From the IMG/VR virus record IMGVR_UViG_3300025771_000019: a DNA stretch of 64,000 nt. One strand, 5' to 3'. Origin of the DNA: an uncultured virus (IMG/VR IMGVR_UViG_3300025771_000019). Lineage: Duplodnaviria; Heunggongvirae; Uroviricota; Caudoviricetes. The notes below the pieces were generated by a model. That model worked only from the letters and a program-made list of their open reading frames with translations, made no database searches and was not told where the DNA came from. The translations under genes were made by a program, and so were the position numbers. Position 1 is the first letter of the stretch. The number at the start of each line of letters is the position of its first letter. Of the stretch, positions 16,941 to 58,413 are shown piece by piece.

Positions 16941-17315
16941 TTAGGAGATGTCAACTTTTTTTTCAAGAATTGCGTGTGCAATAATGTCCCCGTTCTTAAG
17001 GGCAACTAAACTGTCACATGTATTCTTGACTATCAATTTAATTTCAGAAGTCTCTTCTACAATCTGAACACACGAAGCGAGAACAAGCGATTTCTTAAGT
17101 GCCCAATCCTCTTTAATAAAAATCTTTGCAATATATCCTTCCGGCACTTCAAGAGTCTGCCCTGTTGGAATAATTGCTCTTACATCTGGAATCAACTGCA
17201 TTGCATCCGGATCGGGTCCGAAGCCTTTTACGTGCAGTTTTTGTCGTTTATTCCAATTATTATAAGTATCAACAAAGTCTCCATGCTTTAAGGAGACGGC
17301 AATATCAATCATCAT
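16941..17315 (-). CDS. dUTPase-like protein (degenerate)
   Basis: AIIPTG..LEVPEGY, LKKSLVLA, L.NGD.IA pattern, but canonical RSG/GVIDSDY motifs are absent. Confidence 0.55.
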   Translation of the reverse strand: MMIDIAVSLKHGDFVDTYNNWNKRQKLHVKGFGPDPDAMQLIPDVRAIIPTGQTLEVPEGYIAKIFIKEDWALKKSLVLASCVQIVEETSEIKLIVKNTCDSLVALKNGDIIAHAILEKKVDIS

Positions 17316-20287: not shown

Positions 20288-20950
20288 TTATCCTTTCTGA
20301 TAAGTCGACTTAGTATCAATTGCCACGAAGTACGTGGCGTCCGTACCCTTGAACTCAGAGATTCCCTTTGCGCAAAGAGAAACTTTGTAATCCTGAGGCA
20401 AGAGCTTAAGATTATCGGTTTTAATGATAATCTTAAATTCATCAGATGTAGTGCCGATTTCAACACCATAATCATCAGAATTTTGGTTGTTGCTATCAAT
20501 AGCTTTCAACCAGATTTTCCCTTCGGTCCCTACAAAGGCTACCTCAGCGAATTGCAACACGCCAGCAGCCTTAAGAACAGACTGTAGGTCTTCCCAAGAA
20601 ACATCAACAACTACATCCAGAGATGGCAGTTGAATCTCTTTTTCGGGAGCTGCATGAATCATTGATATGTCAGCGTAAACATATTTCGTCTTACGACGAC
20701 CATCGTTGATCATAAAGTATTTATCATGAAACTCTACGTCGGGATCCTTGTAAAGTGATAAAATTGACAAAAATCTTGACAAATCATAGATACATGCTTG
20801 AGATGGGATCTGATCTGGGATAGTTGCAGACGCCACCAGTGTCTTTTCAGGTGTTACTGTTTTAAGTATATCACCGGGTTTCATAAGAATCGACTTGTTG
20901 ATAGTCGAAAAACTCTTAAGAATGGTAAGAGTACGTTCACTAAACTTCAT
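20288..20950 (-). CDS. gp45: Sliding clamp gp45
   Basis: MKFSERTLTILKSFSTINKSI, IYDLSRFL, NLKLLP.DY. Confidence 0.95.
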   Translation of the reverse strand: MKFSERTLTILKSFSTINKSILMKPGDILKTVTPEKTLVASATIPDQIPSQACIYDLSRFLSILSLYKDPDVEFHDKYFMINDGRRKTKYVYADISMIHAAPEKEIQLPSLDVVVDVSWEDLQSVLKAAGVLQFAEVAFVGTEGKIWLKAIDSNNQNSDDYGVEIGTTSDEFKIIIKTDNLKLLPQDYKVSLCAKGISEFKGTDATYFVAIDTKSTYQKG

Positions 20951-20976
20951 TATATAAGCTCCTTACAAATTTCACA

Positions 20977-21876
20977 TTATGTATTAATTTTACTACGTTT
21001 TTTGGATTTTGTCAACTGTTTTTTATTGGCATAAGTCTTACGATTGCTTTTACTGTCTGCGGTGGCTGACACGCCGAGAGAACCAATAGCAGCCATATTA
21101 CCTTTAAAGATATACGTGCCAATGTGATTGAGGTGCATCCAAGGGCACATAATCACTTTCATACCGATGTCACGAGCTTTCTTACAGAAGAAGTAGTCCT
21201 CTGATAGATAACGACGCGATTCCGGATCAATTACACAGTCAAAGAAAGCTGTGATATCTCTTGAACCATCAAACTTGTCTGTACGAACGTGGTCTGGTTT
21301 GTATTGAAGTTCAGGATAGGCATCACGATATTTCTCAAGTGTTTCTCTTGGAATACACATAAAGCCTGTGCCACCTTCACCAATCTCAAGTGGTTCACCA
21401 ACGTTAAACGTATCTAACTTCTTAACAGGATTGAATACGTAGTCTGCTGTATAGTTATCAAGATCGAATGGATTGTCGTCACCTTTACCAAGTTGTGCAG
21501 CCTTAGCAACCTTTTCCCATGCGATTGTTTTCTTAGGATAAGGTCCTACAACAATATTATGATTCTCGGCGTCTGCTAGGTTTACAGCAATCAATCCTAG
21601 AACATCCTTAGCATTAAATGCGATGTCTGAATCGATGAATATAAGGTGAGTACAATCAGATCTGAGGAACTCATCTACAACATAGTTACGTGCCCTCTGA
21701 ATGAGGCTCTCGTTAAAGAGATAATAGAAACGGATAGGAATACCATTTGCTGCACACATCATAGCCAGGTCGTTACAGGACTTAGCATATGAGCCTGAGC
21801 AGTTACCACCGTACATCGGAGTACCGATAAAGAGCTTCTGCTCTTTGAGTTTGTCTAAAGAGATTTCAATTTTCAT
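20977..21876 (-). CDS. GT-A-fold glycosyltransferase-like protein
   Basis: TPMYGG, ESLIQRARN, FIDSDI (DxD), GTGFMCI, YLSEDYFFC. Confidence 0.7.
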   Translation of the reverse strand: MKIEISLDKLKEQKLFIGTPMYGGNCSGSYAKSCNDLAMMCAANGIPIRFYYLFNESLIQRARNYVVDEFLRSDCTHLIFIDSDIAFNAKDVLGLIAVNLADAENHNIVVGPYPKKTIAWEKVAKAAQLGKGDDNPFDLDNYTADYVFNPVKKLDTFNVGEPLEIGEGGTGFMCIPRETLEKYRDAYPELQYKPDHVRTDKFDGSRDITAFFDCVIDPESRRYLSEDYFFCKKARDIGMKVIMCPWMHLNHIGTYIFKGNMAAIGSLGVSATADSKSNRKTYANKKQLTKSKKRSKINT

Positions 21877-22508
21877 ATTTCTACTTGCTCCATATCATTT
21901 TCTGCTCTATGAATAGCTTGAATCCGAAGGATGTCTGCTGCAACATCATGTCTGCTATCATGAGCACTAAATACTTTTTCCCATTGCTCAGTATCTGCAA
22001 CGGGTACGAATCCATTCTTTGTTGTAAAGTTAAACTTCGCATCAATAAATGTACGAGTATCACGTATACGCCAGTAAGGAATGTACTCGTTTAGAAACTT
22101 GTCCTTGCCTACGGCCATTGCCATATGATCTAGAATAACTGGATCAAAACCGTTTGAACGGCTCCACCAGTAATCAACTTTATCTTGAGTACGAAGATAT
22201 CCGATCATCTGCTCAATAAACTGTGGTAGCTTAAGATCATCTGGCTTTGGTTTTAAAAGCTTACGAACTTCTGGTGCTTGCTGTAGCCACCAATCAAGAT
22301 CTGACTTTTGATATTCAAAGTCATAGTTCTTCATTTGATCTTGCAAATCAAGTTTTGCTTTTTGAATGATACCTAAAAGTTCTTGAAAAGAATAAGGCTT
22401 ATCAAGAAAGCGATCCCATACAAATGTTGTATAAGAACACTCAATGCCAGGCGCCTTACGAGCACACTGGCCAATTGTTTCAAAGTCTAGGATAAAGTCA
22501 GTTCTCAT
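21873..22508 (-). CDS. dexA: DexA-like 3'-5' exonuclease
   Basis: DFILDFET, WSRSNGFD, RDTRT, HDSRHDVAAD (DEDDh). Confidence 0.85.
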   Translation of the reverse strand: MRTDFILDFETIGQCARKAPGIECSYTTFVWDRFLDKPYSFQELLGIIQKAKLDLQDQMKNYDFEYQKSDLDWWLQQAPEVRKLLKPKPDDLKLPQFIEQMIGYLRTQDKVDYWWSRSNGFDPVILDHMAMAVGKDKFLNEYIPYWRIRDTRTFIDAKFNFTTKNGFVPVADTEQWEKVFSAHDSRHDVAADILRIQAIHRAENDMEQVEI

Positions 22509-23713
22509 AGAAAAGCCTCAAGTGTAGTAATGTTTTCTTGATATTCAAGCTTCTGAGTACCATTATACTGCAAAATGTAATCGGTGTCAACCATTTTTCT
22601 TAGACCTTTAAGTGTTGCTAGAACCTCTGTGGCCATGTCTGTGGCTGTTTGCACGGGGACATTTTGGCAAATATGATTTGCTACCTTAGGGCCCGCATCG
22701 ACCAATTCAAAGTCTTCTGGCAATCCCATGATAGACATAGCTTCTCGGTAATTAATAAATCGATCTTCATCAGGATGAGTAAGCATAGTAGGATAGTGGC
22801 CAACGAAAGCGCCGATACGATCTTTTGGAACAATGACACCTCTTCTCATAATCGACCCACCCTTAGCAAGTTTCTCATGTTTATAGCGGCACTTATCAAC
22901 TTCTTTCTCAAAACCGTTTGCAGCCATCCAGTCAGCAACTTCATTATAAGTTTTACCTGCTCTTTCGATATAAGAGAAAGAATCCACACCACGAGCTGAC
23001 GTTGGATCTACATCGCGAGAATGCTCTGTATGAGTTTTGCCTCCTTCAATCTCTTCAAGAATGTACTTATAGTACGGGTTGTCGGAAGGCTTTTTAGTAT
23101 TGATAGGTTCAGTTTGAAAGTTTGATTTTACATTACGAATTAATTCTTCGATTGGTGTGTACTCACGATTGTAGTATTCAAAGATTGGTACGCCGTTATC
23201 TCGTTTCCAGAAGAAATAAAATGAGCGTTCTCGTACCTGTGGAACACCATGAAGTAGAGATCTAGTCCGGTATACACTCATCGTATATCCATTGTCCTTA
23301 CCAATCTGTTTCAATTGATTACGAACATTAGTTCCAATCTTACCAGCAAATCCTGGAGCGTTCTCGCCCCAGAAACAGTCTGGTCTATAGTCACCAAGAA
23401 TATACTTTGCAGTCTCAATCATCCATTTGTTGTTTTCGTTGTCGTCACCGTATCCATGTGACATCATTGATAAACCAGCGCATGGACACACTGATGATAC
23501 AACATTTGCTCTTTCGCCTGGCGGTGGCCTATGTCCTTTATCTAGAACATAATATGGAATCTTGTTGTCGTAATAATTTAGAATATGTCTGTCATTACCA
23601 GCAAAAGGTTCATATGACATAAAATGAATTGGAGGTGCACCAAAGGCTCGATGGGAACCAATAGTTTCACCTCCAATTAGTGGTACAATACTTGCGTGGG
23701 TAATATCACTCAT
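22505..23713 (-). CDS. DNA cytosine-C5 methyltransferase-like protein
   Basis: PCAGLS (motif IV), ENAPG (VI), PQVRERSF (VIII), RE...MGLPEDF and QNVP (IX/X); motif I is atypical (PLIGG). Confidence 0.8.
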   Translation of the reverse strand: MSDITHASIVPLIGGETIGSHRAFGAPPIHFMSYEPFAGNDRHILNYYDNKIPYYVLDKGHRPPPGERANVVSSVCPCAGLSMMSHGYGDDNENNKWMIETAKYILGDYRPDCFWGENAPGFAGKIGTNVRNQLKQIGKDNGYTMSVYRTRSLLHGVPQVRERSFYFFWKRDNGVPIFEYYNREYTPIEELIRNVKSNFQTEPINTKKPSDNPYYKYILEEIEGGKTHTEHSRDVDPTSARGVDSFSYIERAGKTYNEVADWMAANGFEKEVDKCRYKHEKLAKGGSIMRRGVIVPKDRIGAFVGHYPTMLTHPDEDRFINYREAMSIMGLPEDFELVDAGPKVANHICQNVPVQTATDMATEVLATLKGLRKMVDTDYILQYNGTQKLEYQENITTLEAFL

Positions 23714-24711
23714 GCTAAAAACTTTCTCACTGTTGAGAGCGCCGTGCTTACCGCCTGATGCATATCAAGATAGGCGTACAAACCACAACGACCGATAAAG
23801 GTCATATGCTCTGGAATTTCTGCTTTATATTTCTTATATAGCTCTCGGTTCTTACCATCACGATCTTTTACGGGATAATAACGTTCATAGTTATTCTCAG
23901 AGTAATCGCATGGTTCCTCGAACGTTAGCGTTGTGATATATTTATTATCGCCGTGACAGGGAATATTCTTCCATTCAGTAACACGAGTCTTTGGGCCGTG
24001 ATGAGTAAAGTTTACAGTAGCGGTTGGTAATGCCCGTGGAATCGGCAGGCTTACAGTCTCAAACTTGATTGAACGATATGGAAGCTTATCATATTTCCAT
24101 TCAAACCATTCATCAATTGGCATAGAATTAAACACATGATCGTATTCTTTATCCATATGATAATTATATTCAGTATTTAAAGATACAGTTATATTGTGGT
24201 GAGTGAGAATGTTCTCAACCATTTTGGTATAGCCATGCCGTGGCATGTACTGTATCTTATCATTTGGAAAGTATTCTTCGTTGTAATCATCACGAATAGG
24301 AACTCGATTGATAATATCAGGATTTAGCTGATCGAGTTCAACACCCCACATCTTCTTAGTATATGGTCTGAAGAATACATCAAGAACATTCTCCTCACCT
24401 ACAATATCTTTTGTTTCACGATTTACTGGTAGCGTAACATATTGGCCATCAGCAAGTTGAGCCTTAACTTTATGTCTATACTCAACCCACTCAGTAAACC
24501 GTGAAAGCCATTCAAATACTTCTTCATTATTAGTATGAAATAGATGAGGACCATACTTATGAACTCGAATGCCATGTTCATTCTCATAATCATATGCATT
24601 ACCGGCTACGTGATCTCGTTTATCAATTACATCTACATTATGTCCTGCTCTTGCAAGCTCACGAGCAACCACACAACCTGATAGACCCGCACCTACTACT
24701 AAATACTTCAT
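23710..24711 (-). CDS. glf: UDP-galactopyranose mutase
   Basis: VVGAGLSG, HVAGNAYD, HKYGPHLFHT, YTKKMWG, LPYRS, RVTEWK, RYYPV, GRCGLYAYLDMHQ. Confidence 0.95.
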   Translation of the reverse strand: MKYLVVGAGLSGCVVARELARAGHNVDVIDKRDHVAGNAYDYENEHGIRVHKYGPHLFHTNNEEVFEWLSRFTEWVEYRHKVKAQLADGQYVTLPVNRETKDIVGEENVLDVFFRPYTKKMWGVELDQLNPDIINRVPIRDDYNEEYFPNDKIQYMPRHGYTKMVENILTHHNITVSLNTEYNYHMDKEYDHVFNSMPIDEWFEWKYDKLPYRSIKFETVSLPIPRALPTATVNFTHHGPKTRVTEWKNIPCHGDNKYITTLTFEEPCDYSENNYERYYPVKDRDGKNRELYKKYKAEIPEHMTFIGRCGLYAYLDMHQAVSTALSTVRKFLA

Positions 24712-25805
24712 GCTGCTAATACTCTCTTAAGCTCGTTTCTTTGAATGCTCTGATCCAAAGGATGGTTATCATATAGAGCATCTCGCTGAGCTTTGGCAGT
24801 AGCTTGCAATTGAGTAAGATCCATTGCTTCTACGTCTTGTACTCGAAGTCCAGCAAGACCCTCATCTTTATAATACACCATCATTTCTGGTTTGTCACCA
24901 ATAATAATAGAGCCGGCGTCAGCAACCTGTAGTGGGCGTGCTCGCCACCAACCAGAACCTGCATGAAAGTATCCGGGCATTAAACAGCCCCATTGCTGTT
25001 CGAATACTTTCACCATTTCTGGCTCGGTTTTACGCTCTGACTTATATTTACCACGCTTGGCTCCGTAGTAAACAATTTCCCACTTCCAATCGTCAGGTTG
25101 CTGCGCCTTGAGCCATTTTCGCGTTTTCTCTTGAACAAGAGACGCAAAATTCCATTTCATTTCTTTTTCTGGTGTATCACCAAAGAAACTATCCAAACCA
25201 ACACTACCTGTTCCATAACCATTGTCTGCACGGCGATTTAGATGATAAGGATTTGGATTATATGTGTAAACATTTTCTCCTTTCCAGCCAAGTTCTAGTG
25301 TTGACATATCACCACCTGCAAAGGCGCTTACAAGCAAACGATTCTCTTTACTGGTGATAATGTTACAAGCATCGATATATTGTTCTTTATAGGACGCTAC
25401 AGTTTCTTTATCTTCTACACCTTGCCATAGATCAAAGAGATACTGGCGAAATACACCTTCATCGTTTGCTTCGAGCTTCTCTTTATATGTTTCAATAGTG
25501 CTATAGATCTGTTTAAACTGCCAATCGTCAAAAGCTAAGATGCAGTTTGGGCGAGCATGTACGGCATACAGTCCGGACCATAGGAATTGACAGAAGGCCT
25601 GGATGCTGTGAATGTATACCACTACCTCATCATAGTGATCTAGGTTCTCGCCTAGTCTGACAGGCCGCTGTTCAACCTCATATCCCATATCTTCAAGGCA
25701 ACGAATGAGTGAATAGTGAGATGGCACAACCTGAAGTTGTTGCTGCAGAAAGAAGTCTTTCGTACACTGCAGCTTATTCATACCTGTTACAAGGATTTTT
25801 TTCAT
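24708..25805 (-). CDS. Putative DNA-modifying glycosyltransferase (GT-B fold)
   Basis: AFDDWQ and GCLMPGY.HAGSGWWRAR..Q motifs; context next to dCMP hydroxymethylase and glf. Confidence 0.6.
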   Translation of the reverse strand: MKKILVTGMNKLQCTKDFFLQQQLQVVPSHYSLIRCLEDMGYEVEQRPVRLGENLDHYDEVVVYIHSIQAFCQFLWSGLYAVHARPNCILAFDDWQFKQIYSTIETYKEKLEANDEGVFRQYLFDLWQGVEDKETVASYKEQYIDACNIITSKENRLLVSAFAGGDMSTLELGWKGENVYTYNPNPYHLNRRADNGYGTGSVGLDSFFGDTPEKEMKWNFASLVQEKTRKWLKAQQPDDWKWEIVYYGAKRGKYKSERKTEPEMVKVFEQQWGCLMPGYFHAGSGWWRARPLQVADAGSIIIGDKPEMMVYYKDEGLAGLRVQDVEAMDLTQLQATAKAQRDALYDNHPLDQSIQRNELKRVLAA

Positions 25806-26167
25806 TTCGACTCCATATATCTTTTACATTCTTTAAGTTTCATCTCTTCATATTCAATATCATTCAATAGTCTATTTAGTGGTGAAGGATGAGGCATAAC
25901 AAAGTGTTCAATACCTAGTCTATTTAGCGTTTCTGACACGAAGTTGCCGAGAGCAATAACTCTTTTATAACCATTAATATAACATAGTAGAGTCTCTTTG
26001 TCAACCATAGATTGATTGTAAGGTCCGGTTTCGTGAATAACATTGGTAAATGCATAGTACCTTATACCGAGGTGATCCATCCACTGATTCAATCTTTTAA
26101 TAGTAGGACTCTGCTGATGTGCAGGACCGTTTGAAGGATTTATACCAACTACAATCATATCAATCAT
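25802..26167 (-). CDS. Uracil-DNA glycosylase-superfamily protein (small)
   Basis: VVGINPS, IALGN, MPHPSPLNR motifs. Confidence 0.7.
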   Translation of the reverse strand: MIDMIVVGINPSNGPAHQQSPTIKRLNQWMDHLGIRYYAFTNVIHETGPYNQSMVDKETLLCYINGYKRVIALGNFVSETLNRLGIEHFVMPHPSPLNRLLNDIEYEEMKLKECKRYMESK

Positions 26168-26684
26168 CTAATGTTGTTACTACCACGCCGGCTTCTTTAT
26201 ACATGGGAAGTGATTCTTTATACCATACCTCTTCCCAATTACCCTTGTCTGTCTTTGCAGTAGGCATTACAACTCGTTTAATACCAGCTTGGATAACGCA
26301 CTTTGTGCATGCTGGGCAAACTGGCAGGCCATAAACATATAGTGTGGCATCCTTTACAGTAACGCCATTATACAAAGCATTCATAAGAGCATTCATTTCA
26401 GCATGAATTATACGAGGATACTTTTCATCTCGATTGTTGAGTCGTTCATCGCTATCTTCAATACCTCGAGGAAAACCATTGTAACCGGTGGCAAGGATCC
26501 GCCTTTCAGCATTAACAACAACAGCACCTATCTTACTCGACGGATCCTTACTCCAGCCAGAGATGATCTCAGCCATCTCCATGAAACGACGATCCCATTT
26601 TGTATCCTTGGCATCTTCCTCACGCATACGCCGTCCCATGTAATCGTGGTAACTTTCTCGATAATATTCCATTCTACTCATCAT
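26160..26684 (-). CDS. dCMP deaminase
   Basis: SKDPS.KIGAV, GYNGFPRG, HAEMNA, CPAC. Confidence 0.93.
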   Translation of the reverse strand: MMSRMEYYRESYHDYMGRRMREEDAKDTKWDRRFMEMAEIISGWSKDPSSKIGAVVVNAERRILATGYNGFPRGIEDSDERLNNRDEKYPRIIHAEMNALMNALYNGVTVKDATLYVYGLPVCPACTKCVIQAGIKRVVMPTAKTDKGNWEEVWYKESLPMYKEAGVVVTTLDD

Positions 26685-26913
26685 CTTTTTTGTCTAGAAG
26701 CTTTTGCTCCATTTGTTCCTTAATATCATGAACTCGTTCTTTTTCAATTAAGTCGATAATCAGATTTGTAAGATCTAGATCTTTCTTGAGAAAAAACATT
26801 CTTTGCTGTATCTTCTCAAGTTGCTTTTGATAGTACTCTAATTCCTTTTCTTTACGCAATCTAGTCTCAATGATATCAGAAATCATTATAAGTTTGCCGG
26901 GCTCATGATCCAT
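26674..26913 (-). CDS. Hypothetical coiled-coil protein
   Basis: Translationally coupled ORF inside the operon. Confidence 0.65.
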   Translation of the reverse strand: MDHEPGKLIMISDIIETRLRKEKELEYYQKQLEKIQQRMFFLKKDLDLTNLIIDLIEKERVHDIKEQMEQKLLDKKDDE

Positions 26914-27608
26914 TATTTCACCAAATTAAAATGTCTTTCATACACGTGTAAATTCATGACTTGCCAGATGAGCATACCTTTTTCAATCTCACCGTGTTCA
27001 CCTGTAACTGCAGCCATTTCATTCCAATTAGAAACAAACTTGTCCATAAGGTATTGTGCCCAAGCATAATCATTCTTATAGCCAAAAACAACATCATTAG
27101 AACGCATTTGAGATACCATCATCAAGACACCATCACGAATATAGAATGTTTGTGCATTTGTACAGATGAAGTCAGACTTGCCGCCTTCATTGAATTCAAC
27201 CCAGATTGATGGACGGTTGTAAACCATTTGAGCACGGCGGCTGTCTGGATTACACCATAATTCATCAAAGGCCATATAAAATTGTTTAAAGTACTTATCC
27301 GAGAAAACAAGATGGCCATAGTTAGAGTTGATATTGCCATGATCGTCTGCTGAATATTTCCAAGCTGCGGGTGGATCTTGGTTCTTGCCATGAATATCAT
27401 AGATATTTGTACTTTGGCTTTCATACCAATCCAACTCAGCTTCAATATAAGCTTGATTTGGTGTGCCAAAGATAGATGGTTCAGATGCAACGAAGTTTGC
27501 ACCAATCATCTCGATGGTTTTCTGGCCAGTTTTATCGATTGTAAATGCCTCATCCGCGAGCTCACCAATAAAGAACTCACGGATGTCTTTTACATTATTC
27601 ATCAACAT
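26913..27608 (-). CDS. gp42: dCMP hydroxymethylase (thymidylate synthase superfamily, T4 gp42-like)
   Basis: INSNYG, SRRA, DFICT, MRSNDVVFGYKNDYAW (Asp at the cytosine-specificity position), NLHVYERHF. Confidence 0.88.
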   Translation of the reverse strand: MLMNNVKDIREFFIGELADEAFTIDKTGQKTIEMIGANFVASEPSIFGTPNQAYIEAELDWYESQSTNIYDIHGKNQDPPAAWKYSADDHGNINSNYGHLVFSDKYFKQFYMAFDELWCNPDSRRAQMVYNRPSIWVEFNEGGKSDFICTNAQTFYIRDGVLMMVSQMRSNDVVFGYKNDYAWAQYLMDKFVSNWNEMAAVTGEHGEIEKGMLIWQVMNLHVYERHFNLVK

Positions 27609-27954
27609 TCGTCACCTGTCGGTTAATTGGACGATTAAAAATATCACGGGAACCGTCTTGGCCTTCAATTTTACCACGACAATATGCAACAAAGAAAGAT
27701 GCATAGTTGATTAGATCTTTAGCACTATCTTCGAGCGATTCGAAGTTTGGTTCATAGTCTTCGCCACGCATGGCTTCCATAACAGATTTCAGACGAAGCA
27801 TTTTACCATGCATGACATCATGGATCGATTGTACGCCGTTTGGATAGTAATCGGCTTGTTGTACAGTTGAGTTCGGATTTTGATAATCACGAGACTTTTT
27901 GACTTGGATCTCAGCACATTCGGCTAAGACTTTTGCGGATTCAGGTGTCGACAT
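27595..27954 (-). CDS. Nucleotide-modification-associated domain 1 (DUF1599-like)
   Basis: KKSRDY, K.LRL, ESLEDSAKDLINYA. Confidence 0.75.
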   Translation of the reverse strand: MSTPESAKVLAECAEIQVKKSRDYQNPNSTVQQADYYPNGVQSIHDVMHGKMLRLKSVMEAMRGEDYEPNFESLEDSAKDLINYASFFVAYCRGKIEGQDGSRDIFNRPINRQVTNVDE

Positions 27955-27956
27955 AA

Positions 27957-28415
27957 TTAACCTCTCTTGTATGTTCGCATTTCTTTTGAATGTTCATATA
28001 GTTGGATTGCTGCATCTCCGTTTATTATAGACAAAGCAATGCAATTTGTCAACTTATAATTTCGCATAGGCTTTCCGTAATACGTAAATTCTGTGTATGA
28101 ACTTGGATCTTTATGATTATTAAACAAGTACATTATGGCGTTGTCGCCTCGATTTTCTGGAACGTTTACAAAAATCAAAACATCAACATTATCAAGCTTC
28201 CAAAATTGACTTTGCTCAATCCAAAAACCTTGATCTCTATGATTAAGACGTAATGTTTTGCACTCATAACGGAGCACATCTAACCAGCCATCTTTTACTC
28301 GATCATACCAATCAGGTGTTTTTTTAGCGTGAGGAAAAAAGTTTGCAACTAGATCTTCGCCAATTGAACCCACCGCAAGAGCGTGTTCTTCTCTTTTATT
28401 TAGCATTTGTAGCAT
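27957..28415 (-). CDS. Hypothetical protein, possible PD-(D/E)xK nuclease
   Basis: GSIGE..V, KDG..D..YECKT. Confidence 0.4.
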   Translation of the reverse strand: MLQMLNKREEHALAVGSIGEDLVANFFPHAKKTPDWYDRVKDGWLDVLRYECKTLRLNHRDQGFWIEQSQFWKLDNVDVLIFVNVPENRGDNAIMYLFNNHKDPSSYTEFTYYGKPMRNYKLTNCIALSIINGDAAIQLYEHSKEMRTYKRG

Positions 28416-28423
28416 GTTTTACC

Positions 28424-29149
28424 TCATATTTTTTCACAACGGGGAAACAGTTTATAGCCACGCTTTGGCACGTGGAAGTAACCCATAATTGGAATTATAC
28501 CACGAGAATCGTTTTTTGTAAAGGAAAGACTTGAGCGAGCGCCGTTTCCGGATATCCAGTTTGTTGTCGTGTCTTCAAGGTTGACAAGAGAAATATGAAC
28601 ACCGGTGATATGGCAATCTTCATTAAGTTCAAAACGCTTAAGAAGATGCATAGATACTTTTTCACCAGAGTTAGCGTTGCCAGTCCACATGTTAAATTTA
28701 TCAAAAGCTTGAGACATGCAGTTTTTGTCTTCGATTTGAGTGTCACGAGTATTTCTGTAAACCCAGTCGTATCCATCACGTTCTTCAGCAAACATATTAA
28801 ATGTTTCAGAGTTTTTGATGAAGTCTTCCATGTTGTTGTTTATAAACACACCAAGCATTTTAGAAAGCTCAGCGGAGCGTTGACTCATATCAAATCCATT
28901 GAAATGATCTTTTGCCGTTTTACGAAAGCCTTTTGGGAACCATTCGTCAACGACATATCCGTTGAAATGTTCTACAAATTCTGGCATGATTCCACGAATA
29001 CCTTCGATAAGAGGAGTGTACTCGCCGTCGGCATTGAATGTTTCTTGACCAGATGTTTCTGCGATGTTGTCATCAGCATAATGTAATTGTGATTCTTGTG
29101 AAGCCAAGAAGTCGCCAGCAGTAGTAAATTTCATATCGCCCATAAACAT
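28424..29149 (-). CDS. Hypothetical protein, possible PD-(D/E)xK nuclease
   Basis: 241 aa; GYD...IEDK; own promoter (TTGACA at 29205-29210). Confidence 0.4.
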   Translation of the reverse strand: MFMGDMKFTTAGDFLASQESQLHYADDNIAETSGQETFNADGEYTPLIEGIRGIMPEFVEHFNGYVVDEWFPKGFRKTAKDHFNGFDMSQRSAELSKMLGVFINNNMEDFIKNSETFNMFAEERDGYDWVYRNTRDTQIEDKNCMSQAFDKFNMWTGNANSGEKVSMHLLKRFELNEDCHITGVHISLVNLEDTTTNWISGNGARSSLSFTKNDSRGIIPIMGYFHVPKRGYKLFPRCEKI

Positions 29150-32800: not shown

Positions 32801-33109
32801 ATGCCTGTAATTTATAACGTAGTTCATACAAGACCAAACACGAGTGCTGCTTGGATTGCTGATGAAGATCCAGATTTCATCTCAGATTTTCAGGCTAAAA
32901 CAAACGAGTATATCGCGTCAGGTCATATTGTAAGCTTTACACACTCACATCCAAACGATCTAGAGCATCATGCCACTCTTACGATTACAGATGAAGCAGC
33001 AGACGCTGTTATCCTGGCCGATGCTTCTTGGAGATATTTTGGTGATACTATCCATGATAATTATCAACCAAAAGGAATTACCACTGTTCAAACTAGAACA
33101 GTAGAATAA
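32801..33109 (+). CDS. Hypothetical protein
   Basis: AGGAG RBS; 102 aa. Confidence 0.65.
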   Translation: MPVIYNVVHTRPNTSAAWIADEDPDFISDFQAKTNEYIASGHIVSFTHSHPNDLEHHATLTITDEAADAVILADASWRYFGDTIHDNYQPKGITTVQTRTVE

Positions 33110-33942
33110 GGATAGCTCTCATAAACATTGCCGTAATCTAACGCAATTCTATGAAGAACTCTTTCTTCCATTCTATCAAATTCCCATCTCTTATGAATGC
33201 TCATCCATTGATCTGATAAAATAATTTGTCCATCCACCCAATCATGGTGGTAAGCATATGATTCATCTTTTAAAATTTGGTGAACTAATTCTGAGTGTAC
33301 TTCTTGAAACTCATCTTCGTTTAAACCGTCCATACCGAATACCTGATAAAACGGATAATATAATCCAGTAATTCCAGCTTCTGTAGTCATGACTAGATCA
33401 AAAAGATTTTCTTTGTTCACATGATCGTGGAACCAAGGCGTGGTACTATATCTTCCTTTCTCATATCCAAAATAGCACTTTAAATTTGCAATCGATTTTT
33501 GCAGGTTTTCTGACATGCCTTCATAGACCTTTGCCATATTAATAAAGCTTGTTCTAGAGCCTTCCATGTGTTCTGCACCATACATCCAAACAATAGGCTG
33601 TCTTGCTTTATTACTTGCCATATTGGCATGCCATTCTAAAGCGCTCGCGTGGCCAAATAATCCTGGCTCGCCTTTATCATCTTTCTTACCTGTAACTCTG
33701 ATAACACCTTCATGCAAATAAATGCTATGTGTTCTTTTCTTATCTTTTGCTTTCATTACATTGCCAATCACCTCTGCAATACGCAGCTGTTCTGCTGGTT
33801 CTATAAATTCTGGCTCAGGAAAAACAACGACAGTTTGTTTTGAGAGTAGTCGAGCTACTTCAATTATCTCATCATCAGTTAGAGACGTAATAGGGTTATG
33901 AACTCGTAAAGTCCAGCCGTTATCATCAAAACTTATTTCCAT
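33088..33942 (-). CDS. TauD/TfdA-family dioxygenase
   Basis: LEWHAN, G.RTSFIN, HHDWVDG.IILSDQ...HKR, RVLHR. Confidence 0.85.
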   Translation of the reverse strand: MEISFDDNGWTLRVHNPITSLTDDEIIEVARLLSKQTVVVFPEPEFIEPAEQLRIAEVIGNVMKAKDKKRTHSIYLHEGVIRVTGKKDDKGEPGLFGHASALEWHANMASNKARQPIVWMYGAEHMEGSRTSFINMAKVYEGMSENLQKSIANLKCYFGYEKGRYSTTPWFHDHVNKENLFDLVMTTEAGITGLYYPFYQVFGMDGLNEDEFQEVHSELVHQILKDESYAYHHDWVDGQIILSDQWMSIHKRWEFDRMEERVLHRIALDYGNVYESYPYSTVLV

Positions 33943-34475: not shown

Positions 34476-34978
34476 GAGTTCGGCACTGTTTCATACAGTT
34501 CAGCAGTAAGCTTCCATTTATTTGTGCTCTTTTTATTTATTGCTCCAACAAATCTTTTAAAATAATTTGCTTGCCTTTTTTCTCTAGAAATAATAGCGTT
34601 CTTTTCTACAAGCAAAGATTGGTGTTCAAGCATTGCTTGAATAGTTGGTCTTAAAAGTTCACGAGTAAACTGAACTCTATTGTCTGGTGTTTGATATAAC
34701 CGCGACAAAATTCTAGAACCTAGTTCAATATCTTGGACGCCCGAGAAGCCAACTATCCTGCCTTCTCTTCTCATTATAGATATCGTATGCAAATTTTCAA
34801 TCTGTTCTATTTTATAATTATCGATCAAATAATGATCGTCTTTTACAGCATGCATACATGCCTCTATCTCAACGAGATCATAGTCAGTTGTTTTTCTTGT
34901 CCACACTTCTGCTGGTCGAGTATCATTTGCAGTAGGCATAGGCGTGTATAGCCAATCATCTATTTTCTGTATAAGCAA
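34445..34978 (-). CDS. Hypothetical protein, possibly GNAT-like
   Basis: IVGFSG...RILSRLY; weak resemblance only. Confidence 0.4.
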   Translation of the reverse strand: MLIQKIDDWLYTPMPTANDTRPAEVWTRKTTDYDLVEIEACMHAVKDDHYLIDNYKIEQIENLHTISIMRREGRIVGFSGVQDIELGSRILSRLYQTPDNRVQFTRELLRPTIQAMLEHQSLLVEKNAIISREKRQANYFKRFVGAINKKSTNKWKLTAELYETVPNSWQYIAWREE

Positions 34979-35607
34979 TGCTGTGTACTCTCTATTCCGG
35001 TTTCATAATCTGTTGGTATCACTTCGCCAAACTGCTTCATATAGTCGGTGTGATGCGCAACTAAAAAATACCAAATATTATTCATACGTGGTATATCTTC
35101 CAAGCCTTCATACACCATTACGTCTTCTGGTGTTGCAACAACATAGGCATATTCTTTATTATAAACCTGATCAAAAACGTCGGGTCTATCTTTTAATCTA
35201 TAGTTGAGTGCTCGCCTTAACATAGTCTCGTCATCTGTGGGAATGAATGTTGAGTACAATGGTGATTGAATTTTTTGAATATATCTTTTCATTTCAGATA
35301 TAGTCATATGCGTAAAGATTGAAAACATTAATGTTACATCGGCAGGCAGATCTAATTCTTCATCTTTACCATTTCTCCAATATTGATGATTGTAAGCATC
35401 TAGGTGGTGCCATTCATGTTCTGGCCAAATATGTCGATTTTCTTCTATAAGTTCCCAATCAACATCAACGCCCACGTACTCAAAATCACATGGCTGATAC
35501 TTAAGCATGTTTCCATGATTGCATCCCCAGTCAACTACGCGCTTTCCTTTTAATGGAACTATACGCTCAAAATATTTTCTTACATCATACTCAAGATAAA
35601 TTTTCAT
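34960..35607 (-). CDS. Class I SAM-dependent methyltransferase
   Basis: VVDWGCNHG, YVGVDVD, FSIFTH; shares motifs with 31669..32361. Confidence 0.75.
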   Translation of the reverse strand: MKIYLEYDVRKYFERIVPLKGKRVVDWGCNHGNMLKYQPCDFEYVGVDVDWELIEENRHIWPEHEWHHLDAYNHQYWRNGKDEELDLPADVTLMFSIFTHMTISEMKRYIQKIQSPLYSTFIPTDDETMLRRALNYRLKDRPDVFDQVYNKEYAYVVATPEDVMVYEGLEDIPRMNNIWYFLVAHHTDYMKQFGEVIPTDYETGIESTQHCLYRK

Positions 35608-36215
35608 TTTGGTGTTTCGAATTTTATCCTAGGTTCTGGGTTTAAATATTTCTCATAAAATTCTCTATAAGATACACTGATATTAAACTGCAAATTTACT
35701 CTGTCGTCATGTCTTTGATTAAACACTGCATGTGGTTGTCTACAGTTCCAAGCCCAGGCTGAGCCGGCCTCAGTCTTTCCTATAGAATAAATTGTTTCAT
35801 CTGAATATATTTCAAGAGGAGTGTATACTTCATCCTCATAACACATAGGCGCAATAATACTGCTTGCTCTTACTGGGTCGCAATGAGGTAGGACGTCAGC
35901 TCCACCGTCTATCTTAAGAAATAAACACCCGTATATCTCATCGTATTTTTCTACGATTTCAAGAGCCCACGGATGAGTGACATACGCAAAGTTAAAAGCA
36001 AAGTACGGCTCATATGTGGCAGACTTTGCTTCTTGTAATATTTCGCTATAAACATCTGGAGGAATATCGCAAAACTTTGCGGCCAGTGTCCACGGATAAT
36101 TCTTTCTTCCGTGGTGTGGGCTAGATCTCATTGCATATTGATCTCTTTCACCTACTCGGCTATCATAGCCTTTCATGTCTTTTATTTTACGATCATTTGT
36201 CTTTTCATCAACCAT
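35604..36215 (-). CDS. 2OG-Fe(II) oxygenase-like protein
   Basis: LPHCD...PHAVFN...DRVNLQ. Confidence 0.65.
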   Translation of the reverse strand: MVDEKTNDRKIKDMKGYDSRVGERDQYAMRSSPHHGRKNYPWTLAAKFCDIPPDVYSEILQEAKSATYEPYFAFNFAYVTHPWALEIVEKYDEIYGCLFLKIDGGADVLPHCDPVRASSIIAPMCYEDEVYTPLEIYSDETIYSIGKTEAGSAWAWNCRQPHAVFNQRHDDRVNLQFNISVSYREFYEKYLNPEPRIKFETPK

Positions 36216-36817
36216 TCTAATACAGCTCCAGTTTGATCGAAACGATGGAATCTCAAATTCTTTCCTTTATGATGTTCAGCATGATACCCTTCGCCAGCTG
36301 TCATCACATTAATTGCTGGAACATTACGAGACTTGCCGCCTATGTGACAAACGCCGTTTACGAGACCAAAGCCAATTAGAGCGCATACCGAAGGAATTAC
36401 TGTATAAGCTACAAGCACCTGCCAGCTGATTGCTAAAGCAATTAATGCCTGGGCACCCCAGATGATATGCCAGTACTTATGAAAGAAAAGAATACGAGGA
36501 TTCACATACAAATCTTTTACATATTTTGGTGGAATATGATCTACTCGCCATATTCCGAATAGAACCTTCCAAAATCCTACCTTTAATGGAGAATGCGGAT
36601 CAAGTTCTGTATCTGAGTGATGGTGATGCATGCGATGTACACCAATCCATCCAATAGGACTTCTTAATCCTATCAGGTTAGTTGTCCATAGAACAAATAT
36701 CTCATAAAGCCAGTGCGCCTTAAACGCTTTATGAGCAAAATATCGATGCAATCCTGCTGATACTGAAACATGGGCTATAAGAAGATACCACAAAAAGCCC
36801 CAGACTAAAAATTCCAC
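36182..36817 (-). CDS. Fatty acid desaturase (delta-9 type)
   Basis: His boxes HRYFAH, HRMHHHHSDT..DPHSP, GEGYHAEHH; TM segments. Confidence 0.92.
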   Translation of the reverse strand: MEFLVWGFLWYLLIAHVSVSAGLHRYFAHKAFKAHWLYEIFVLWTTNLIGLRSPIGWIGVHRMHHHHSDTELDPHSPLKVGFWKVLFGIWRVDHIPPKYVKDLYVNPRILFFHKYWHIIWGAQALIALAISWQVLVAYTVIPSVCALIGFGLVNGVCHIGGKSRNVPAINVMTAGEGYHAEHHKGKNLRFHRFDQTGAVLEWLMKRQMIVK

Positions 36818-38550: not shown

Positions 38551-39212
38551 ATTCCAATCACCATATATCTTGTATATTCTTCGGAGGGGCTCATTTCACC
38601 CTTATAAAATACTCTTACTAAATCTAAAGACTCTACAAAAGAATCTAGACTATCGTGAGTATTAATGTGTTCTGGTTCTGCGTGATAGTTGTTTGATTGA
38701 AAGCAAACCATCGTATTATGATCTTTAGAATTTGCGATGAGCTTAATATCGTCGGGCTCCATGTGTTCACAGCTTGTATTAATAATCAGCTGAAAAGCAT
38801 CTTTTCTTTCTAAGAAATAATTAATAGCATCATCAGTTATGCCAATATTGTTTCTACACTCAGGAATATCTTGTTTTAATTCCCAGTGAATGCGTTCACA
38901 CATAGGATCTGAATCAACATTCCAGATCTTTACTTCTTCATTAATGTGTTCTCTTAGTAAAATTCCAGTAAGACCGTACCAACTTCCCATTACCAGAATA
39001 TCTTTCAAAGGTGCATCTGGATAATAGTCATCAGTAAGATAGTTTGAGAGCTCAGATACTAGCCATTCTTTACTAGCCATTTGTGCATCGTTAATGCTGT
39101 TTATAATATCGAACGATCTATATAAATCTTCGTCTTGGTTATATTGTGAATCTTTATAAATTCTTTCGATTTCTTGAATAGCATTCTTATAGATCAGTTC
39201 TTTGTAGTTCAT
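38547..39212 (-). CDS. SAM-dependent methyltransferase-like protein
   Basis: SKEWL, VMGSWYG, VDSD, IINTSCEH, QSNNY, RYMVIG. Confidence 0.7.
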   Translation of the reverse strand: MNYKELIYKNAIQEIERIYKDSQYNQDEDLYRSFDIINSINDAQMASKEWLVSELSNYLTDDYYPDAPLKDILVMGSWYGLTGILLREHINEEVKIWNVDSDPMCERIHWELKQDIPECRNNIGITDDAINYFLERKDAFQLIINTSCEHMEPDDIKLIANSKDHNTMVCFQSNNYHAEPEHINTHDSLDSFVESLDLVRVFYKGEMSPSEEYTRYMVIGI

Positions 39213-39801
39213 ATTTTAATCCATTATACATATCAATTGGCGCATCCCATTCAGCAGGGTTTGCTATGCTGTTTACTATTCCATTTTTAAATGTGTTGTG
39301 TGGAATCTTTTCGTGCACAAGAAACCTATCAATGCCTGGATACTTTCTCATGAAGTAATCCTTATTAGATAGAAAGTGTTCCCATACATCACGTTGCTGT
39401 CCTGCCGTCCATGTAATTACAGAACTATTTATGTGCACGTCATAGGCATGCGGAGCCATGTAAAGATCGTCTTTCCAATAGTCTTTTAAAATAGTAAGAC
39501 CATTCCATGTAATAAACTCAGACGGATCTCTTTTAATATCCATATCTAAATCAAAGTAAAGACACTTACCTTCTACAGGAAAGTCTTTACTGAACATAGC
39601 AAGCTTATTCCACCAGTATTTTAGTTTTGGTTTTTCAAATACTGGAATACATGGAATAGCTACACCGTAAGTATCGTCTGTATAACAATAGAATTTTGCT
39701 AATGGAAAATACTTTACTAATTGTTCTGTTAATCTGTTTACGTGTTCATAGCTGTACTTATCGCCATGTTTTACGAATATAATGTTTAACAATCCTGCCA
39801 T
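39187..39801 (-). CDS. Glycosyltransferase (GT-A)
   Basis: KHGDKYS..HV..L, CYTDD, WWNKL, YFDLD, NSSV. Confidence 0.75.
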   Translation of the reverse strand: MAGLLNIIFVKHGDKYSYEHVNRLTEQLVKYFPLAKFYCYTDDTYGVAIPCIPVFEKPKLKYWWNKLAMFSKDFPVEGKCLYFDLDMDIKRDPSEFITWNGLTILKDYWKDDLYMAPHAYDVHINSSVITWTAGQQRDVWEHFLSNKDYFMRKYPGIDRFLVHEKIPHNTFKNGIVNSIANPAEWDAPIDMYNGLKYELQRTDL

Positions 39802-57546: not shown

Positions 57547-58413
57547 TTAACTATTTATCTCCAATCTGTACTGATCTTCACACATTTGGTAGATATCTTT
57601 CGTGAGTACACAATATTCTGATAATTCATCAACTACTGAAGCAGTAGCATCACCTTCTCTACGATCTTCGAAAACTCGTTTCATTTCTTTGCCGGTAACT
57701 TTATCCATAGCATCTAAGACTTCAAGAACACTGAATCCTGTATTACTACCAAGGCATTCATACGGAGTATTACGAGGACCTTCTTCTACAGCCTTTACTA
57801 TAGCAGCACTAAGATCACAGACGTGTATATAATCGCGAATGCAAGTACCGTCCCTAGTATCATAATCGTTACCAAAGATGCTAATGTGGGGATATTTTTC
57901 AGCAGCCACCATAGCAGCAACACGAATAAGATGGGTTGGAGCACCCAATTGCCGATTAACGCCATCAGTACCAGAGACATTAAAAAAGCGAAAAATAGTA
58001 TAACCATTGGCTTTCTCCTTAATAATATCTTCAGCAGCCACCTTACTGCGAGCATAAGGCGAAGCCATCTCCCATGCTGATGATGTACTTGCAAAGATAA
58101 AGTTTGGAGTTTTTACTTTGTCAAGCATATTTGATGTGCCCATAGCATTTACACGGTAATACTCCGTGGGCTCTTTAAGTGACTGAGGTACGACACTGCG
58201 ACCGGCCAAATGAACTACAGCATCATATGTACCATGTACAGCAAAGGGATCTGTGACATCTACGGGCTCAAACATATCCACATATTTTGATATATCATTG
58301 TGCTCGCCATGAATATTCGTATCCCAACCATCGACATAATGGCCATACTCTTTAAGCAGTTTACATACATGGCTGCCAATATAACCCGTGGCACCCGTTA
58401 CCAGAACTTTCAT
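57547..58413 (-). CDS. galE: UDP-glucose 4-epimerase-like NAD-dependent epimerase
   Basis: VTGATGYIGSH, HLAG, YARSK, RFFNV, DGTCIRDYIHV.DL, RREGD. Confidence 0.88.
   Translation of the reverse strand: MKVLVTGATGYIGSHVCKLLKEYGHYVDGWDTNIHGEHNDISKYVDMFEPVDVTDPFAVHGTYDAVVHLAGRSVVPQSLKEPTEYYRVNAMGTSNMLDKVKTPNFIFASTSSAWEMASPYARSKVAAEDIIKEKANGYTIFRFFNVSGTDGVNRQLGAPTHLIRVAAMVAAEKYPHISIFGNDYDTRDGTCIRDYIHVCDLSAAIVKAVEEGPRNTPYECLGSNTGFSVLEVLDAMDKVTGKEMKRVFEDRREGDATASVVDELSEYCVLTKDIYQMCEDQYRLEINS

Follow-up and report, generated by a model that had tools for sequence, protein, structure and literature searches.

The closest described counterparts of the locus analyzed here are the T-even pathway for glucosylated 5-hydroxymethylcytosine (hmC), the sugar-decorated cytosines of phages RL38J1, RB69 and DLP3, and phage gene clusters that combine a C5-methyltransferase, a TET dioxygenase and a glycosyltransferase. 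We analyzed a stretch of 64,000 nucleotides from an uncultured virus of the class Caudoviricetes (IMG/VR record IMGVR_UViG_3300025771_000019; "the window" hereafter means this whole stretch), in which a block of minus-strand genes at positions 20977–27954 encodes a gp42-type dCMP hydroxymethylase, a GT-B glycosyltransferase and a UDP-galactopyranose mutase (Glf). On sequence grounds, this block probably specifies a T-even-type, pre- and post-replicative cytosine hypermodification with galactofuranose (Galf) on hmC, a reading that we hold with some reserve.

With the T-even pathway the window shares a gp42-type enzyme with the same active-site signature, a dCMP deaminase and a GT-B enzyme structurally nearest to T4 beta-glucosyltransferase (BGT), and its block adjoins clamp and clamp-loader replication genes. 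It departs from that pathway in that the transferase lacks sequence-level membership of the BGT family, that Glf and an epimerase of the GalE type suggest UDP-galactofuranose (UDP-Galf), and not host UDP-glucose, as the donor, and that a C5-methyltransferase, a mini uracil-DNA glycosylase (UDG)-like protein and a GT-A transferase are added.

For the DNA of Rhizobium phage RL38J1, it has been proposed that the galactose next to the base comes from UDP-Galf made by a phage Glf (PMC13326640, 2026; cited throughout from the available part of its text). RL38J1 and the Pootjesviridae resemble the window in having a phage Glf for the sugar of a C5-modified cytosine, next to a thymidylate-synthase homolog and DNA glycosyltransferases, but the acceptor of RL38J1 is 5-hydroxycytosine, made by a D169N enzyme, whereas the window enzyme has a hydroxymethyl signature, and the RL38J1 Glf (gp84) lies far from the transferases gp151, gp215 and gp237 (PMC13326640). 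The transferases of the two are not close relatives, as tblastn with the window protein matched no Rhizobium phage at E ≤ 1e-5. In RB69 and DLP3, 5-hydroxycytosine carries arabinofuranose sugars through an ether link (PMC13326640). These phages are T4-like as well, use GT-B transferases (that of the related HY126, PDB 9iqz, aligns with the window enzyme at Z 13.2) and carry a furanose on a C5-modified cytosine, as is predicted here; unlike in our prediction, the sugar is a pentose, the link is an ether to 5-hydroxycytosine, and the donor pathway is a different one that lacks Glf.

The clusters of C5-methyltransferase, TET/5mYOX dioxygenase and glycosyltransferase (PMC8256090; Pyle et al., bioRxiv 10.1101/2023.12.21.572611; both cited from the parts available) likewise join a C5-methyltransferase to a DNA glycosyltransferase, sometimes with sugar epimerases. 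In these clusters the methyltransferase makes the TET substrate, and GT-B enzymes that occur together with thymidylate-synthase homologs and dCMP deaminase are described as well (Pyle et al.). The window differs in that hmC would come from the gp42-type enzyme, and the nearest record, G001, which is incomplete, contains no TET/JBP match (PF12851, E ≤ 1). The words "mutase" and "furanos" do not occur in the available text of bioRxiv 10.1101/2023.12.21.572611, and we found no report of Galf on hmC in the literature. The preliminary description of this DNA had considered that the modification may be undescribed, a view that now narrows to Galf on hmC; arabinofuranosyl-5-hydroxycytosine has been published, and the use of UDP-Galf has been proposed for RL38J1 (PMC13326640). 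What is new here is that fusion of the transferase to a C5-methyltransferase (and to a UDG) in other phages ties the methyltransferase to the module.

The block consists of ten co-directional open reading frames (ORFs), each overlapping the next by 1–14 nt. From position 27954 downward, the order is 119-aa protein, thymidylate-synthase homolog, 79-aa ORF, dCMP deaminase, 121-aa protein, 365-aa protein, Glf, C5-methyltransferase, 3'-5' exonuclease and 299-aa protein, the last ending at 20977. The same gene order was seen again in 80 related viral loci, so that the arrangement is not due to chance. These loci are the best 80 of 233 confirmed viral-contig stretches encoding relatives of the transferase (43–100% identity), and their contents were scored by tblastn with the proteins of the window; many of the contigs are near-copies, and the counts given below are therefore not independent. 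All seven block genes named in the preliminary description lie where it had placed them, on the minus strand, although it had overlooked the GT-A transferase, the exonuclease and the 79-aa ORF. The genes on which the predicted chemistry depends are the following.

26913..27608, minus strand: gp42-type dCMP hydroxymethylase (5-hydroxymethyl-dCMP synthase); PF00303, 42.6 bits; PDB 1b49/1b5e.
26160..26684, minus strand: dCMP deaminase; PF00383, 77.1 bits; phrog_174, 2.9e-49.
24708..25805, minus strand: 365-aa GT-B glycosyltransferase, T4 beta-glucosyltransferase-like, predicted DNA hmC glycosyltransferase; structural model, Foldseek, VIA-align, phrog_14998.
23710..24711, minus strand: UDP-galactopyranose mutase (Glf); PF03275, 173 bits; TIGR00031, 286 bits; PDB 3hdq, 9.8e-76.
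57547..58413, minus strand: GalE-like NAD-dependent sugar epimerase, 30 kb from the block; PF01370, 124 bits.

The thymidylate-synthase homolog matches T4 deoxycytidylate hydroxymethylase (PDB 1b49/1b5e) over residues 6–230 with an E-value of 6.4e-63 (215.6 bits), and its motifs SDFICTN and MRSNDVVFGYKND align with SDFMCTN and MRSNDVVFGFRND of the T4 enzyme. The residues equivalent to L143, C146, D169 and N177 of E. coli ThyA are D, C, D and D in the window enzyme, in all 63 complete homologs from the related loci (63/63), and in the enzymes of Aeromonas phage 25 and Erwinia phage FBB1. At the D169 position, producers of 5-hydroxy-dCMP among the thymidylate-synthase homologs have Asn, whereas hydroxymethylases retain Asp in combination with N177D and L143D/E, where Asp at N177 marks dCMP specificity and an acidic residue at L143 a hydroxymethyl product (PMC13326640). 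The window enzyme has the catalytic Cys, Asp at N177, an acidic residue at L143 and Asp at D169, and is predicted to produce 5-hydroxymethyl-dCMP; with this signature the predicted base is hmC, and 5-hydroxycytosine is disfavoured. A gp42-type enzyme in its Asp form, as first described, is thus borne out, while the hydroxycytosine option that had been kept beside it finds no support. A gp42-type gene lies within the flanks of 68 of the 80 related loci, and seven of the 12 loci without one are cut off upstream.

The AlphaFold model of the 365-aa protein (pLDDT 93.8, pTM 0.91), for which 61 relatives were aligned before folding, is certain in its GT-B fold. Its best Foldseek match was T4 BGT (1qkj; E 2e-7, TM 0.58), and VIA-align also placed T4 BGT (1c3j) first among 48,161 chains (Z 16.7, root-mean-square deviation 3.7, 293 residues), with T4 AGT (1y6f) at Z 15.4 and the phage HY126 DNA glycosyltransferase (9iqz) at Z 13.2. 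The GT-B fold of the product of 24708, on which the initial proposal depended, is therefore confirmed, with T4 BGT ranked first by two independent aligners; as many bacterial GT-B enzymes also reached Z 13–16 with VIA-align, the leaning of the protein toward DNA transferases is modest. Its neighbours are nucleotide-metabolism and DNA enzymes in 80/80 related loci. From its context, namely gp42-type neighbours and fusions to DNA methyltransferase and UDG domains, the enzyme is predicted to act on hmC in duplex DNA.

Relatives of this transferase are numerous, with 446 cluster representatives at E ≤ 0.001 and the 233 viral-contig stretches mentioned above, and tblastn against 50,697 phage records matched 34 of them. 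The closer 23 records (26.9–35.4% identity; several are GenBank/RefSeq duplicates) comprise one of Phage C48C1, 19 of Aeromonas phages, two of Stenotrophomonas phage IME13 and one of Erwinia phage FBB1. The distant 11 come from phages of Gordonia (7), Actinomycetia (1), Providencia (2) and Morganella (1), and at least the Gordonia phages among these gave no Glf match.

The Glf protein covers positions 2–203 of the 203-position PF03275 profile, matches PF13450 with 74.1 bits and carries VVGAGLSG at its N-terminus; its match 3hdq is the mutase of D. radiodurans. It is some 35–45 residues shorter than the solved mutases, with a gap after residue ~109, and in alignment with 3hdq and 1wam it retains PxR, TRxTE, YYP and GRxxxYxYLDM. 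We take the Arg and Tyr positions of Glf to be substrate-binding. The epimerase (288 aa, against a profile length of 332) has as its best NCBIfam model TIGR01179 galE, the UDP-glucose 4-epimerase. It is 52% identical (E about 1e-99) to epimerases that adjoin the transferase–Glf pair in two related loci (L055 and L059) and 45% identical to that of a third (L085), and by this comparison we regard it as their ortholog. Since these orthologs adjoin the transferase and Glf, the donor route from UDP-glucose through UDP-galactopyranose and UDP-Galf to the transferase is contiguous in some relatives and split in the window. The gene assignments of the preliminary description hold for the deaminase and the mutase as well as for galE at 57547, the last by its best model, though under the cut-off of that model.

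Co-occurrence of glf with the transferase across phages, proposed at the outset as a check, was found in both collections: Glf lies immediately downstream of the transferase in 53 of the 80 related loci, and the two are side by side, by listed coordinates, in 22 of the 23 closer phage records (the exception, avDM4, is not among the listed Glf rows). Cultured phages of Aeromonas, Stenotrophomonas and Erwinia carry Glf beside the transferase and a gp42-type enzyme in the same genomes.

The position beside the transferase behaves as a variable sugar-donor slot. It may hold Glf alone, as in the window; Glf with an SDR epimerase (L074–L077, L081, L083, L084); an SDR epimerase/dehydratase with a UDP-glucose/GDP-mannose dehydrogenase (L061–L064, L066, L067, L069, L078); or it may be empty, the transferase abutting the methyltransferase (e.g., L036, L037, L040–L048). 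A further type, with the order epimerase, transferase, Glf and cytidylyltransferase near ThyX and ribonucleotide reductase, occurs in L055 and L059, and in L085 a dATP/dGTP diphosphohydrolase-like gene is followed by the thymidylate-synthase homolog, epimerase, transferase and Glf. In L061 (8085–9855), the place of Glf is taken by a 318-aa SDR epimerase/dehydratase and a UDP-glucose/GDP-mannose dehydrogenase-like gene. Slots of the dehydrogenase type suggest that the base bears another sugar there, which may be a uronic acid or a pentose formed from such an acid. In a tree of the transferases (quick IQ-TREE search; 82 sequences collapsed by identity to 68), the Glf-less members fall mostly into one clade of 20 rows (SH-aLRT 97), which includes all seven dehydrogenase-type rows, and only the Glf-less L079 and L080 fall within a Glf clade. 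Taken together, the five slot labels required 7 changes on the tree against a shuffled mean of 27.4 (0/200 shuffles as low); as kinship by itself clusters labels, this is co-variation and not causation.

In the pathway that we propose, the gp42-type enzyme would make 5-hydroxymethyl-dCMP, which would be phosphorylated and built into DNA in place of dC, and the dCMP deaminase would supply dUMP for thymidylate synthesis, like Cd of T4; these steps are taken from knowledge of the families. The remaining ones are suggested by context: the GalE-like epimerase would yield UDP-galactopyranose, the phage Glf would contract it to UDP-Galf, the BGT-like enzyme (24708–25805) would place Galf on the hydroxymethyl group of hmC in DNA, and the GT-A enzyme (20977–21876) may attach a further sugar. 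The outcome would be DNA shielded from restriction enzymes and CRISPR nucleases, as glucosyl-hmC shields T4. The route from GalE through Glf to the transferase, giving a furanosyl-hmC, had been put forward in the preliminary description, and it is the version best supported by the comparative data, namely the T4-BGT-like fold, the adjacency of Glf and the epimerase orthologs; the parts of that proposal that fell away are hydroxycytosine and arabinofuranose, nothing having been found in support of the latter.

Several findings weigh against this pathway. We take the T4 BGT family to be CAZy GT63 / Pfam PF09198, and the 365-aa protein matched no Pfam family at E ≤ 1 and no NCBIfam family; a profile of its 61 relatives picked up no transferase among PDB sequences (E ≤ 10), all matches being noise with E ≥ 0.4, and its sole PHROG match, phrog_14998, is of unknown function. 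A sequence-level link to BGT was thus not found, and the kinship is visible in the modelled fold only. Nor can donor specificity be read from that fold, and the transferase family does not depend on Glf, which is absent from 27 of the 80 loci (two of them truncated just downstream). Both donor enzymes score below the cut-off of their equivalog or best models, Glf with 286 bits against 303.75 for TIGR00031 and the epimerase with 205.7 bits against 262.3 for TIGR01179. The second transferase of the operon, with GlfT2 among the Foldseek matches of its model, could use Galf instead. The conserved C5-methyltransferase has no obvious substrate if all cytosine is hmC. No dCTPase or dNMP kinase turned up in the PHROG scan of the window, beyond which no search for them was made; with this result and an incomplete genome, full replacement of cytosine is not established. 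Finally, we found no nucleoside analysis of any carrier phage in the literature.

In this connection we observed a 124-aa protein adjoining regA (16941–17315) with a sub-threshold dUTPase match (19.5 bits, cut-off 22), which could be relevant to the control of dCTP/dUTP pools.

The alternative that fares best, although unlikely, is that the BGT-like enzyme adds a hexose from host-supplied UDP-glucose or UDP-galactopyranose and that Glf serves the GT-A enzyme at the end of the block, so that Galf would be a second sugar and not the base-proximal one. The gene concerned is:

20977..21876, minus strand: 299-aa GT-A-fold glycosyltransferase with a DSD motif, possible second transferase; model pLDDT 82.6; phrog_1574.

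Foldseek matched this model to STIV A197 (4.1e-9), the LH3 transferase domain (8.8e-7) and GlfT2 (4fiy, 1.4e-6) among many GT-A enzymes. The presence of GlfT2, a GT-A enzyme that uses UDP-Galf, among these matches (4fiy, 4fix, 9nj0, 9nj1, 9dtp) speaks for such a role, as do the occurrence of the transferase family in 27/80 loci that lack Glf and the precedent of di- and trisaccharide DNA modifications made by successive transferases (PMC13326640; bioRxiv 10.1101/2023.12.21.572611). GlfT2 is, however, one of many GT-A matches with similar scores, and Glf adjoins the BGT-like gene and not the GT-A gene. The GT-A gene, present as complete ORFs in 41 of the 80 loci, does not track Glf, as it occurs in Glf-containing and Glf-less loci alike, among the latter, for example, L036, L037 and L040–L048. 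Moreover, the complete genomes of Aeromonas phage 25 and Erwinia phage FBB1, which have gp42 and the Glf–transferase pair, contain no GT-A homolog, so that the transferase beside Glf there is the BGT-like enzyme; phage C48C1 gave a GT-A match of 12.6 bits only. Because the GT-A gene occurs with or without Glf and is missing from Aeromonas phage 25 and FBB1, the BGT-like enzyme is favoured as the user of Galf, and the GT-A enzyme is, by its modelled fold, a candidate for adding a second sugar or for another target.

It is distinctly unlikely that Glf, the epimerase and the transferase or transferases glycosylate not DNA but another target, for instance proteins of the virion or a glycan on the host surface, with the DNA carrying hmC or another sugar only. 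Such a role would fit the distant transferase relatives (22–25% identity) in Gordonia and other actinophages, which lack a Glf match, a study that took a phage Glf for a host cell-wall gene (PMC6630229, cited from the part available), and the ~65% of contigs with related transferases in which Pyle et al. found no neighbouring base-modification enzyme. Against it stand the setting of the transferase, which lies amid nucleotide-metabolism and DNA enzymes in every related locus and has a gp42-type gene in its flanks in 68 of them, its fusions among 17 long relatives (11 with a DNA C5-methyltransferase, two with a UDG), and its best structural matches, which are DNA glucosyltransferases.

Bacterial Glf is able to interconvert UDP-arabinopyranose and UDP-arabinofuranose, and the product could accordingly be arabinofuranosyl-hmC. 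RB69 and DLP3 are established examples of arabinofuranose on cytosine, but their donor route consists of an arabinose-5-phosphate isomerase, a phosphatase and a kinase/nucleotidyltransferase (PMC13326640), none of which is annotated in the window, whereas the transferase and Glf are accompanied by an epimerase of the GalE type, with UDP-glucose 4-epimerase as its best model; we consider this product very unlikely. A 5-hydroxycytosine with an ether-linked sugar, as in RB69, DLP3 and RL38J1, had been left open by the preliminary description and is used by the Glf-carrying Pootjesviridae (PMC13326640), but with Asp in place of D169N in the window and in 63/63 related loci, and with T4 gp42 by far the closest PDB sequence, it is extremely unlikely.

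The acceptor calls for some care in view of Phage C48C1 (OQ984149.1; L001:5580–9027), where the order is Tet_JBP dioxygenase, BGT-like transferase and Glf. The dioxygenase upstream of the transferase and Glf scores 62.6 bits against a cut-off of 34.9, and the C48C1 genome contains neither a thymidylate-synthase homolog nor a PF00145 C5-methyltransferase, for which reason the TET enzyme may oxidise thymine. The modification of C48C1 is then possibly a thymine-derived, galactofuranosyl one (on 5-hydroxymethyluracil, 5hmU); this fits the phage dioxygenases that reportedly act on T in one study. The safest statement is that the transferase family travels with enzymes making a 5-hydroxymethylpyrimidine, which in the window is hmC because of the gp42 signature.

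The block also encodes a methyltransferase and two small proteins.

22505..23713, minus strand: C5-cytosine DNA methyltransferase family protein with a "PCA" variant of motif IV; PF00145, 70.6 bits.
25802..26167, minus strand: 121-aa mini UDG-superfamily-like protein; PF07799 and PF03167, both sub-threshold.
27595..27954, minus strand: 119-aa protein, DUF1599/Nmad1-like (weak), the conserved first gene of the block; PF07659, sub-threshold.

The methyltransferase, recognized as a C5-MTase from the start, exceeds the PF00145 cut-off of 22 bits, and its match begins at profile position 69. The motifs PCAGLS, GEN(A/S)P, QxRxR and QNVP are each present in 65/65 homologs, and the N-terminal PLIGGE (55/65) partially resembles the SAM-binding motif I (FxGxG). 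The gene was found in 68 of the 80 related loci, two of the 12 others being truncated. A PF00145 domain precedes the transferase-like domain in 11 of the 17 long or atypical transferase relatives scanned (P0164, P0166, P0167, P0172, P0181, P0183, P0186, P0208, P0209, P0212 and P0257), and in P0172 and P0257 a strong PF03167 UDG domain stands between the two; one of the 17 is fused to an all-alpha dUTPase_2 domain. These fusions make the methyltransferase part of the module, to which the mini UDG-like protein also belongs, and judged by sequence the three separate window genes within 22505–26167 look like the split form of that one module. A PF00145 gene is missing from Aeromonas phage 25, FBB1 and C48C1, and some members of the transferase family thus do without the methyltransferase.

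In both P0172 and P0181, an intein that carries a LAGLIDADG endonuclease (PF14890, PF03161) splits the methyltransferase domain. A search for loci related to P0172 matched the intein/LAGLIDADG part only, and a search with P0208 alone found none. The loci that match an alignment of the fused form belong to phages with an A-type DNA polymerase (L204:7001–13160, L190:3861–13147, L170:4852–10401 and L161:5464–9496), where the order is methyltransferase, MazG-like pyrophosphatase, transferase, thymidylate-kinase-like protein, thymidylate-synthase homolog, dCMP deaminase and polymerase; L170 and L161 have methyltransferase and transferase in fused form, and in some cases an SDR sugar enzyme lies near.

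As hmC comes from the gp42-type enzyme, the methyltransferase has no evident precursor-making role. It may methylate the cytosines that remain under partial replacement, or may serve on hmC in a way that does not involve methylation. A TauD-family protein (33088–33942) considered as its partner was dropped, as it is unrelated to the TET enzyme of C48C1. We give a rather small chance to the idea that methyltransferase, mini-UDG and BGT-like transferase form one DNA-level machine, in which covalent Cys-C6 chemistry and base flipping would be applied to hmC without methylation and which, with Galf-hmC, would yield DNA hypermodified in two layers. The methyltransferase could then, for instance, present or activate hmC for glycosylation or for a second, site-specific derivatisation.

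The 121-aa protein scored 20.3 bits against DUF1643 (cut-off 22.5) and 17.7 bits against UDG PF03167 (cut-off 24.3). Its homolog ORFs have G(I/M)NP(S/A/G) in 32/37 and HPSxxN in 36/37 cases, GINPS and HPSPLN in the window; we take a GxNPG-like motif A and an HPSPxx motif B to be signatures of the UDG superfamily. In the ESM Atlas, 21 of 30 matches fell into clusters with PF03167 in 20–27% of members, and in one structural neighbour cluster (TM 0.87) the share was 74%. Tblastn found the gene in 38 of the 80 related loci. A hidden Markov model (HMM) of 30 homologs did not match the UDG domains of P0172 or P0257 and gave one weak match (13.9 bits), to a 157-aa ORF beside the fused gene in L170. 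The UDG-like label given earlier is thus favoured by motifs and Atlas neighbours and stays below Pfam membership, and we treat it as a lead. The Nmad1 label of the 119-aa protein fares similarly, with a possible distant kinship suggested by the Atlas (21/30 matches in the PF07659 set, one cluster carrying the family in 48%) and a PF07659 score of 15 bits (E 0.033) against a cut-off of 25; phrog_18404 "hydrolase" matched at 1.3e-12. A homolog lies upstream of the thymidylate-synthase gene as 47 complete ORFs among the 80 loci, and an HMM of 37 of these homologs did not match the MazG-like neighbours. Phmmer of both small proteins against PDB sequences gave chance-level matches only.

A PHROG scan covering 82 ORFs places the window in a T4-like myovirus, with baseplate genes, the gp44/62 clamp loader, regA and topoisomerase II among its contents. 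The nearest record, G001, has a length of 62 kb and an estimated completeness of 29%, and megablast of 20900–28500 against the phage collection gave no match, indicating that the window phage has no close cultured relative. The remaining features in and around the block are:

20288–20950: gp45 clamp (PHROG scan).
21873..22508, minus strand: 3'-5' exonuclease (Rv2179c-like); PF16473, 39.7 bits; phrog_255, 1.4e-30.
26674..26913, minus strand: 79-aa ORF; tblastn matches in L007–L013 and L018 only (close relatives).
28024..28052, minus strand: sigma-70-like promoter match TTGACA-17-TATAAT (12/12) just upstream of the first block gene; consensus match only.

Further promoter matches lie within the block at 26004–25976 and 22590–22562 on the minus strand, and no convincing minus-strand terminator was found in the block (all by consensus matching only; 39 promoter-like sites in the region against 28.5 ± 6.0 in shuffles). 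Perfect 12/12 sigma-70 consensus matches on the minus strand occur three times within 7 kb (29210–29183, 28052–28024 and 22590–22562), which is consistent with putative T4-type early promoters.

Elsewhere in the window, four radical SAM proteins are encoded at 39786–43221 and 48413–49603, three of them with a SPASM-like domain N-terminal to the core. Near them lie a phrog_1962 glycosyltransferase (39187–39801), a fatty-acid-desaturase-like protein (36182–36817), a methyltransferase (34960–35607) and the TauD-family dioxygenase (33088–33942); the group is a putative second biosynthetic cluster. About 1.3 kb downstream of the GalE-like gene, with an HNH endonuclease and ORFs of 160 and 74 aa in between, a 274-aa protein (55449–56273) matches phrog_2835 "glucosyltransferase" (1.2e-30) and, at its N-terminus, Glyco_transf_25 (24.9 bits). 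The protein is a candidate third sugar transferase.

Should the chemistry be borne out, galactofuranosyl-hydroxymethylcytosine would be an addition to the natural DNA bases, and the known sugars of hmC, glucose and gentiobiose, would be extended to a furanose hexose. As cultured Aeromonas, Stenotrophomonas and Erwinia phages carry gp42 and the Glf–transferase pair, the prediction can be tested in existing isolates. The conserved and sometimes fused C5-methyltransferase in a hydroxymethylcytosine pathway raises a mechanistic question; should it act with the mini-UDG and the transferase as one machine, the resulting two-layer hypermodified DNA would be of a kind not yet described. The variable sugar-donor slot suggests a family of related hmC glycans, and its variants offer enzymes to label hmC with sugars other than glucose.

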